From a phage: 64,000 nt of DNA. The stretch lies in the sequence record PZ674596.1. The stretch is one strand, 5' to 3'. Position 1 is the stretch's first letter. Each line of letters starts with the position of its first letter. The position numbers were made by a program. Below are positions 9,001-12,000 of the stretch, one piece after another.

Positions 9001-12000
9001 TCTCCTTCACCAGCAATAGCGGTTCTAAGAAGGCCACTAAGTCAGTAACGATTAACTCCGCAGGTTAATCAGTAATTAAGCAGAGGCTCAGGATGAGCCT
9101 CTCTTTTAAAAGGATTTTAACCAATGACCAAATTACTCGATCTCGATTCCATTCTGCCTCCGAAGAAAAGCATCAAATTTGGCGGTCAGGAATATCCCAT
9201 CGTTGAAATGACGGTAGGTCTGTTCGTTTCCATCAAGCAGATGGAAGGCAAAGATCTCATGAACATGTCTCCTGTTGAGCAAGTGACAGCTTATGCAGAT
9301 CTGGTTCGTAAGGTTATCCCTTCAGTACCTGACGAAGTTCTTGAAAAACTGACTGTTCCGCAACTCCAGCAGATCTTCACCTTCGCTATGGAAGTGATTG
9401 ATGAAGAAAACGAAAAAGCGGCTGGCGAAGGGGCAAAGTAATTTCCCGCGATGAATCCGGGACAAGGACCGTCTCAATAGATCTCGGATTCTATTTCAGT
9501 CGTGTAGTTGCTCACTACGCCGTGTCGCCATTAGAGCTACTGAACGTTCCTCTCACGATGTTCTGGATGCTCAGTCGCAATATAGACCGTCTGCGTGCGG
9601 AAGAGGATGTCCGCAACTTACAAGTCGCTCGTGCGTCCCAGGCGGATGGCGAGGCTGTGAAGGCGTTCATGGAGGGTTTGCAACTCAGGATTGGAAGACC
9701 AGTCGTAACAGATAAAGTCTACGATCCAAGCCAGGATAAGGCAGACCCTGACGCCAAAGAGCAACTGATGCAAATATTTGGCAGAGGATGACAAGGGAAT
9801 GTCACAAAACGTAGAGTTTATCCTGTCGCTGGAAGACAAACAGTTTACAGCGTCAATCGATCGTGCGGGGAAACTGCTTACTCGATTTGGTGAGCAGGTA
9901 ACAAAGCCTGCTCAAAAAATCCAAACCTTTGAACGCTCTTTGGGTTCGGTCGCCCGTATCATTGGCGTTCTGGAAAGCAAGCTCGATTCTACGGCAGATA
10001 AACTACAGGATGTAGCTGCCGGTTTTGAGCTTGCTTCAGATGCTACGCGTAAAATGCGTGGCAACATCACCAGCCTCAATTCTGGTCTTAAAGCCCTGAT
10101 TGAGCGCGTCGATACGACAACTTCTTCAGTAGATAAACTCACCGCGTCATTACGTAAAGTGCAATCAGAGCTAAATGATTTCTCTGATTGGGCGACCTAT
10201 GCAAGCAAAAGCGCAAGCCGCTTTGGTACGGAGGTCAAAGAAGCCTCTGCGTCCGTGAGTGGCATGAATACGCGCCTTAATACCACGACGAAGCGACTCA
10301 GTAATTGGGGTGTCACAACGAGTCAGGCTGCCGAGGGACTGAAAAAGGTTCGTGAGCAGATGGACGAAGTTATCGGACGTCAGCAACTGATTAGCAAGCC
10401 GGTACGCGTTCGTACATCTGGAAGTGGCGATGGTGGCAGCGGGCGGCGTAGCGGCTCTGGCCATAGCGGTAAAAGTAACGAAGGAGGTATGTTCTCTGGC
10501 CTTCGTGGCAACATTTTCCTGCTTGGCGAGATCGGAGATGCAGCCAGAACGGTTACTGACATCATGTTTGGATGGCAGAAGCCTATTGTTGAAGCTGCGG
10601 CCGAAATGGAACGTATGCGGGTGATGCTTCGAGGGTTGAATAAGGAGAAGTCCAACCCGGGCCAGGCTGCTGCTGATGATATGAAGTACATCGTAGACAT
10701 GGCTCAAAATGCGCCGTTCGCGATGCAGGCGTTAACAGATTCCTTCGTGAAGTTTCGTTCTGCTGGCTTAGATCCAACCGATGGTTCTCTGAAGGCGCTG
10801 GTGGACTCCGTTGCTCGTTTTGGTGGTGATAGTGAGCTGTTGAAACGTGCGGCTGTGGCCGTTCAGCAGATGTCCGGTAAGGGCGTTGTGTCAATGGAAG
10901 AGCTACGTCAGCAATTAGGTGAAGCCGTTCCTAACGCGATGCAGGCAATGGCAGACGCCGCAGGCATCACTATGGGGGAACTGACTAAAGCCGTTGCCAG
11001 CGGTACGGTTGAGGCAAAACAGGCGTTGTCTCTGATGTTTGTTGGTCTGCGTGCGGAGAATGAGAACGCAGCGAAAGACATGATGCAAACCTACACAGGT
11101 GCGCTGGCGCAACTTCAGACGTCATTCACGTTATTTGCTGATCGGGTTGGTCAGGCCGGATATCTGGATTCTCTATCGAAGGGGATGAAAGAACTGGCTT
11201 CAATCATGAATAGCGCCGAAGGGATTTCGTTTGCCAATTCTTTAGGTTCGGGGTTAACAACGGCAATCGATGGGTTGCGTCAGCTTGCTCAATGGTTAGC
11301 AAAGAACCAAGAGCTGGTAATTAATCTCGGTAAGGTCGTGGCCGCGATGGTTGCGTTCAAACTGATGCGAGCAGGGATCATGGGGGTAGTTGGCGCTGGG
11401 AGCCAGATGGTTAGCACCTTTGCCACGATGGCGACCGCCATACAGACTCCATTTAACCTCGGCGCTACAGCAGTAACCCGATTCAATCGTGCGGCACGTA
11501 TGGGGCTGGCTCCGATCCCCTCTCTTATTTTCGCCATCCGTGGGGCGATTACGGGGCTTAAAGGCGCTTTTGCTGGATTAACGGCGTTCATTGCAGCAAA
11601 CCCTATAGGGGCAGCATTTACAGTTGCCACTGTAGCTGTTGCTGGCCTAATCACGTACATGACCATGCTCCGCAGCGAAACTTCAAAGGTCGTTGACGAG
11701 ATTAGGAAAATACCAGAAGCGATGACAGCGACCAAACGTGCACAAATGGCCGACCGCGCAGAAAAGCTCGAAAAGCAGATTCTTGCTGATCAACGAGCAT
11801 TAAAAACTGGTGAGGGTGTTAATTACGTATCTAACTCTGCCGGTGTTATTACTCACAAAGAGTCGAAGGCTGACATCGAAGCACGCCTGAAAAAAAATCA
11901 GGAAGAGTATCAAAAGATAACCGGCACGATAGCTCTTGGTGACGGCGCTGTAGCAAAGCGTTTGGCTAAAGAGGCTGCCGAATCTCAGATTGAGAAAATT

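Follow-up and report, generated by a model that had tools for sequence, protein, structure and literature searches.

Two overlapping reading frames, here called G and T, separate the genes for the major tail protein and the tape measure protein in the phage sequence PZ674596.1, of which a stretch of 64,000 nucleotides (the window) was analysed, and they are well supported as the source of a G-T fusion protein made by -1 ribosomal frameshifting. Judging from the sequence and its relatives, we consider it very likely that 9124-9441 is the G and 9438-9791 the T of a tail assembly chaperone pair of the lambda type, and that they are joined by a -1 slip at the tetramer A_AAG at the end of G. A G-T frameshift at this place is the expected, conserved strategy of a textbook system and as such not surprising; it has so far gone unannotated, and all that sets it apart is the reduced slip site beside the stop codon.

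The window is an SSU5-like phage-plasmid, as can be told from its identity to known members and from its occurrence on plasmids only. Over the region 9080-9830 the identity is 99.7-99.9% with Escherichia phage Cyrano and CMS-2020a, 91.6% with Salmonella phage SSU5 and 87% with the next group, Klebsiella phage-plasmids, and among 5426 complete E. coli genomes the same stretch is plasmid-borne in 232 and chromosomal in none. The relatives referred to below are 64 distinct G-to-T sequences, gathered from IMG/VR, GTDB genomes and assemblies and reaching down to 60% amino-acid identity in G.

Coding beyond the G stop codon

The G-like open reading frame (ORF) ends where the original prediction had placed its end, with the TAA at 9439-9441. 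The -1 frame has a TGA at 9402-9404, stays open from 9405 until the TGA at 9789-9791, and is followed by the tape measure ATG at 9799, 8 nt past that TGA, which agrees with the earlier claim of a -1 frame open from 9405 to 9791 and leading into the tape measure gene. The two frames share 37 nt in the window (9405-9441). The order of the four genes (8286-9068, 9124-9441, 9438-9791 and 9799-14367; Table 1) is the same in all relatives.

T does not seem to have a start of its own. The first ATG, GTG or TTG in the -1 frame is GTG 9522, and no ribosome binding site was found for the ORF 9522-9791: the energies of the Shine-Dalgarno (SD)/anti-SD duplex are +0.9 kcal/mol at GTG 9522, +0.4 at ATG 9558 and 0.0 at ATG 9567, to be compared with -5.4 for G and -5.8 kcal/mol for the tape measure gene. 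The original prediction had called this ORF one without a convincing start, and a search for an independent start backed by a ribosome binding site ended, on these energies of 0 to +0.9 kcal/mol, without one. Nor is any start codon conserved in 9442-9521 among the 64 relatives, where the first possible T start drifts between codon 8, 27, 33, 34, 37, 38 and 42 past the G stop. In public records the T ORF is called with lengths of 74 to 131 aa, always under the name "hypothetical protein", and the choice of start in these records is arbitrary.

The start-less stretch 9442-9521 evolves as coding sequence all the same. Variable columns are distributed over the codon positions of the -1 frame as 10/26 (first), 2/27 (second) and 22/27 (third), a 3-nt indel preserves the frame, and none of the 64 sequences has a stop in the -1 frame while each of the other two frames is interrupted in 58. 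The peptide (V/I)(S/T)R(D/E)E..(V/I)SID(L/F)GFYFSRV is conserved among the relatives, its part SID[LF]GFYFSRV being retained down to about 30% identity, and in an AlphaFold2 (AF2) model of T the N-terminal part is the most confident (predicted local distance difference test, pLDDT, 76-83). These comparisons show that 9442-9521 is under purifying selection in the -1 frame. A conserved coding segment that lacks a start and carries on directly from G in the -1 frame is the hallmark of a frameshift fusion, and its coding-type conservation upholds the proposal that frameshifting accounts for the start-less ORF 9522-9791. The predicted junction reads ...GEGAK-VISRDESG..., and the fusion would have 105 + 117 = 222 aa.

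Table 1. Features of the tail gene region and of the proposed frameshift site, in window coordinates
Feature	Position	Strand	Basis
Major tail protein, C-terminal Big_2 Ig-like domain	8286..9068	+	Pfam Big_2 E 6.5e-26, phrog_1280
G-like tail assembly chaperone ORF, 105 aa, zero frame	9124..9441	+	position, phrog_893 E 4.5e-49, SD -5.4
GAAAAAG, only A_AAA 9414-9417 able to slip	9412..9418	+	read GAA_AAA_G; not the conserved site
Candidate recoding cassette GCA_AAG_TAA	9433..9441	+	invariance, position in 13-nt overlap
T extension, -1 frame, 117 codons + TGA	9438..9791	+	translation, phrog_1131 E 4.9e-40
Candidate downstream hairpin, arms 9453-9462 / 9482-9491, 19-nt loop	9453..9491	+	RNAalifold consensus
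Tape measure protein gene, 1522 aa	9799..14367	+	Pfam TMP_3 E 4.3e-27, Tape_meas_lam_C E 6.1e-13, phrog_1292

The probable slip site and the competing explanations

The slip most likely takes place on A_AAG (9435-9438), the last lysine codon of G, which has the G stop codon directly 3' of it. The motif [C/T]A_AAG_TA[A/G] is invariant in 64/64 distinct SSU5-clade sequences, and it is also present in two more distant loci with 48% and 38% identity to the window G (L096, GCA_AAG_TAA; L097, GCA_AAG_TAG). The conservation includes the silent positions (NNA_AAG_TAR): of the 105 third positions in G only 11 are invariant, and 9435 and 9438 are two of them. In 28 of the 64 relatives, including SSU5, a Yersinia pestis contig and Kluyvera, a codon of G is silently changed from GGC to GGT, and this produces a TGA at the -1-frame equivalent of 9426-9428, which restricts the overlap to 13 nt (equivalent to 9429-9441), and A_AAG is the sole slippery element within them. 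In-frame A_AAG is otherwise rare in the structural genes of the window, with 16 per 2459 codons. The window overlap 9405-9441 holds no in-register X_XXY_YYZ heptamer, only the tetramers A_AAA (9414-9417) and A_AAG. As A_AAG is both invariant and the only slippery candidate in the 13-nt overlap of the 28 relatives, we infer that it is the slip location, rather than another place in the overlap.

A wider comparison places this site within a family with a more classical signal. A profile search with G gave 426 relatives, whose 80 representative sequences all fall in phrog_893, and in the five remote gene neighbourhoods that were read (L096-L100) the layout is always G, T in the -1 frame, and the tape measure gene. 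The overlap site is G_GGA_AAA in one of them (L098, 31% identity to the window G) and G_GGA_AAG in another (L100, 33%). With the T part as tblastn query, the matches extended to phages of Rhizobium, Pseudomonas and Stenotrophomonas, about 110-120 kb in size, with in-register overlap heptamers that read G_GGA_AAG in Rhizobium V1VFA-S, C_CCA_AAG in Pseudomonas nickie, A_AAA_AAA in Stenotrophomonas ANB28 and G_GGA_AAC in Rhizobium RHEph10. In these remote homologues, conserved T coding extends upstream of the G stop, alongside the canonical heptamers. By these in-register heptamers, the G-T family as a whole has a classical signal, of which the SSU5 clade carries a reduced tetramer version set against the stop codon. 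The constraint on the -1 frame, the missing ribosome binding site and these heptamers together support the original prediction of a G-T frameshift of the kind known from long-tailed phages.

It could be argued that there is no frameshift at all, and that T is a separate protein made by internal or coupled (re)initiation at ATT 9441-9443, GTG 9522, ATG 9558 or ATG 9567. A separate ORF is what all public annotations call, ATG 9567 is present in every relative, and the ATT overlaps the G stop as TAATT and is used by one gene caller (P0179). We nevertheless regard this as very unlikely: no SD precedes any of these starts, the relatives differ in the codon that overlaps the stop (ATT, ATA or GTT), and the conserved coding reaches the G stop, and in the remote homologues passes upstream of it together with heptamers that reinitiation does not need. 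Nor would reinitiation explain why the silent positions 9435 and 9438 do not vary.

The other possibility, a slip elsewhere in the overlap, touches the site named in the original prediction, GAAAAAG at 9412-9418. The string is present there, but it is not supported as the slip site. A tRNA-Lys could slip on the A_AAA within it to give the fusion ...DEENEK-SGWRRGKVISRD..., a route that is physically possible in the window, where the -1 frame is open from 9405; the re-pairing from AAA to AAA would be fully cognate, and GAAAAAG is found in 58/64 close relatives. The zero-frame reading is however GAA_AAA_GCG and not G_AAA_AAG, hence there is no X_XXY_YYZ heptamer, and the remaining 6 relatives, all of them diverged, have GAAGCCG instead. 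The string is also common in the window (32 copies against 17 expected). In 28/64 relatives, SSU5 and the Y. pestis contig included, the route is blocked by the TGA downstream of it, and since this TGA arises by a silent change in G, there is no selection on the -1 frame at 9426-9428. Lastly, A_AAA comes last among the productive tetramers in E. coli, which rank as A_AAG >> U_UUC > U_UUU > C_CCU = C_CCC > A_AAA (PMC4066793), and A_AAG is the better of the two tetramers in the window. We find it highly improbable that A_AAA is the site.

A change of frame at the RNA level, or a decaying pseudogene pair, is scarcely credible: there are short A runs at 9413-9417 and 9435-9437, but runs of 5 and 3 are too short for efficient polymerase slippage, and an arrangement kept under purifying selection in hosts from Escherichia to Rhizobium, Pseudomonas and Stenotrophomonas is not in decay.

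Candidate stimulators of the slip and a possible mechanism

One candidate stimulator of a slip at A_AAG is the stop codon directly 3' of it. A 3' stop codon stimulates slippage, an idea known as the "shifty stop" and reportedly put forward by Weiss et al. in 1987, a paper found in the reference list of PMC5009743. The second candidate is the downstream hairpin 9453-9491, whose 8-bp core is paired in 100% of cells over 12 diverse sequences, with double changes at three of the pairs. Downstream of the slip sites in L090, L094, L097, L098 and L100 there is again a hairpin whose 3' arm lies on the D[LF]GF codons, with z scores from -2.5 to -5.0 (-4.97 in L100) and with 5' arms of quite different sequence. 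The suggestion in the original prediction to look for RNA structure 3' of the slip site led to a conserved candidate hairpin, and the fold of the window itself is no better than shuffled sequence. A scan of the region against Rfam found no frameshift element.

Two further candidates were rejected. A small hairpin (9444-9448/9458-9462), 5 nt past the slip codon, has its closing pair at the freely varying third position of a Gly codon (9461) and is down to 3 bp in several relatives. The SD-like GAAGGGG upstream of the site (9427-9433) is GAAGAAG or GAAGACG in relatives and so is not conserved; its spacing to the slip site is moreover too short for stimulating a -1 shift.

As regards efficiency, the six tetramers of the above ranking, with a strong pseudoknot, gave 0.26-5.6% frameshifting in E. 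coli (PMC4066793). IS1222 makes use of an NNA_AAG site, Bacillus subtilis cdd has one, and lambda requires only about 1 GT per 30 G (PMC5009743).

Several observations weigh against the proposed frameshift at A_AAG, or against parts of it. The site is a tetramer only, and tetramers without a stimulator stay near background, about 0.15%, in reporter assays (PMC4066793), for which reason A_AAG should need a stimulator, for which the stop codon and the hairpin are candidates only. The hairpin begins 14 nt past the slip codon, as opposed to the classical 5-9 nt, folding of the window sequence gives a z score of only -0.71, and lineages differ in how far the hairpin lies from the slip site (about 8 to 28 nt). 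Because of this variable spacing, the recurrent D[LF]GF hairpin may not be a classical frameshift stimulator. One remote homologue (L099, 38% identity to the window G) has neither A_AAG nor a canonical heptamer in its overlap, only G_GGG. The 37-nt overlap of the window would leave slippage on A_AAA (9414-9417) as a possible minor extra route. For the chaperone function, the window G has no Pfam match and no significant match in the PDB by fold or by profile.

With the frameshift at A_AAG as our preferred explanation, the following course of events can be envisaged. Most ribosomes would stop at TAA 9439-9441 and release the 105-aa G, while a small fraction would slip by -1 on the last sense codon, where a host tRNA-Lys moves from AAG (9436-9438) to AAA (9435-9437). 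The shifted ribosomes would then read GTA ATT TCC and onwards to TGA 9789-9791, and would produce the 222-aa fusion, with a T domain that has no start of its own. The adjacent stop, through slow decoding in the A site, and/or the downstream hairpin could lift the frequency to a useful few percent. It is also conceivable that the roles are those known from lambda, with G binding the tape measure protein and T recruiting the major tail protein. The slip would depend on the tRNA-Lys of the host, since no phage-encoded tRNA-Lys is found among the tRNAs of the window. The window has a tRNA cluster at 42877-43574, with Asn-GTT, Tyr-GTA, Thr-TGT and Ser-TGA.

The gpG/gpGT of lambda and the conserved G-T frameshift of long-tailed phages are described by Levin et al. 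1993 and Xu et al. 2004, as summarised in PMC5009743. As in lambda, an overlapping ORF pair separates the major tail gene from the tape measure gene in the window, and the second ORF is start-less and in the -1 frame; the slip would occur at a lysine codon that precedes the G stop by a few nucleotides at most, the proteins are of similar sizes (105 and 222 aa in the window), and a fusion of low frequency is expected. Unlike lambda, where two tRNAs slip on the heptamer G_GGA_AAG, the window has only A_AAG (in G_GCA_AAG) abutting the stop, and its G and T have no detectable sequence similarity to those of lambda. The single-tRNA sites of IS1222 (G_CGA_AAG) and B. subtilis cdd (A_CGA_AAG), and the A_AAG reporters in E. 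coli, have the same minimal motif and the same shift of tRNA-Lys from AAG to AAA. Those cases either have defined stimulators or are incidental, whereas the window has candidates, the adjacent stop and the hairpin 14 nt downstream.

A tentative idea, to which we would give somewhat less than even weight, is that the SSU5 clade has swapped an ancestral two-tRNA heptamer for a minimal cassette of NNA_AAG plus a stop codon, in which slow termination, possibly with the D[LF]GF hairpin, drives slippage of tRNA-Lys in the P site, and that some relatives use this cassette twice, at the G-T junction and at an Ig domain (see below). If this is true, the SSU5 lineage would be a natural model for -1 frameshifting stimulated by a stop codon.

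Chaperone assignment, spread and neighbouring genes

The assignment of G as a tail assembly chaperone rests mainly on its position and on the frameshift architecture. The best match in BFVD for an AF2 model of G (pLDDT 72.4) is named "Tail assembly chaperone" (E 3.6e-4, TM 0.64), at least 10 further entries among the top 50 bear that name, and 3 of 81 remote G homologues have weak matches to Pfam Phage_TAC_7. We regard these fold and family matches as supportive but not decisive. A Pfam scan of T gave no matches, and a model of the T part (pLDDT 63.6) had as its sole BFVD match an uncharacterised homologous fragment, which is uninformative. Both phrog_893 and phrog_1131 are listed in PHROGs with unknown function.

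SSU5-like phage-plasmids are widespread in Enterobacteriaceae, and the G-T module is carried, besides by E. coli plasmids, by Salmonella phage SSU5, Klebsiella phages, Kluyvera contigs and the Y. pestis contig. G and T are not joined in any of the matched annotated phage records or the E. coli plasmid records listed, where both ORFs are hypothetical proteins, and literature searches on SSU5 combined with frameshift or tail assembly found, within the library searched, no account of a G-T slip site. Recognition of the fusion would put right how an essential tail assembly gene is annotated in the SSU5 family and in its relatives among Rhizobium, Pseudomonas and Stenotrophomonas phages (phrog_893, phrog_1131). 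The Y. pestis contig (L084, strain NCTC5923) has the size of a plasmid, 108 kb, and contains the G-T module with the 13-nt overlap and GCA_AAG_TAA; with module and site present, the frameshift that lacks annotation would extend to it as well. Two further contigs with this enterobacterial tail module are filed under metagenome-assembled genomes (MAGs), one with 98% G identity under a "Bacillota bacterium" MAG (L083, JAEWTL010000011.1) and one with 74% under a "Candidatus Fimivivens" MAG (L087, DALYYK010000001.1), and both are probably mis-binned contigs.

In three relatives with 60-65% identity (L090, L092 and L095) the major tail ORF is only 163 aa long and ends with ...GCC_CCA_AAG_TAA/TAG, with the Big_2 Ig-like domain following on in the -1 frame. 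The regions concerned are 1658-1712, 1659-1698 and 1649-1688, respectively, equivalent to about 8802-8819 in the window. The canonical heptamer C_CCA_AAG abutting a stop looks, from its sequence, like a second programmed frameshift, and since all three tail ORFs end with C_CCA_AAG_TAR, the layout of AAG plus stop would have been used a second time in this lineage. Programmed frameshifts reportedly add Ig-like domains to phage structural proteins (Fraser et al. 2006), and the three relatives would be similar cases in that they appear to attach Big_2 by a -1 shift. The window differs from them in lacking this second site: the tail protein and the Ig domain are fused in frame in one ORF (8286-9068), with GGT CCT AAA CCG GTA AAA at about 8802-8819.

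The starts of the two flanking genes also deserve a comment. In the mechanical ORF list, the tape measure gene opens at TTG 9778 and overlaps the end of T, with an SD energy of -2.1 as against -5.8 kcal/mol at ATG 9799, which is the annotated start in both Cyrano and SSU5. The mechanical start of the major tail protein, ATG 8286, has no SD (+1.3 kcal/mol), and the annotation of Cyrano puts the start at the equivalent of ATG 8322 (MSNTH...), which is probably the true one.

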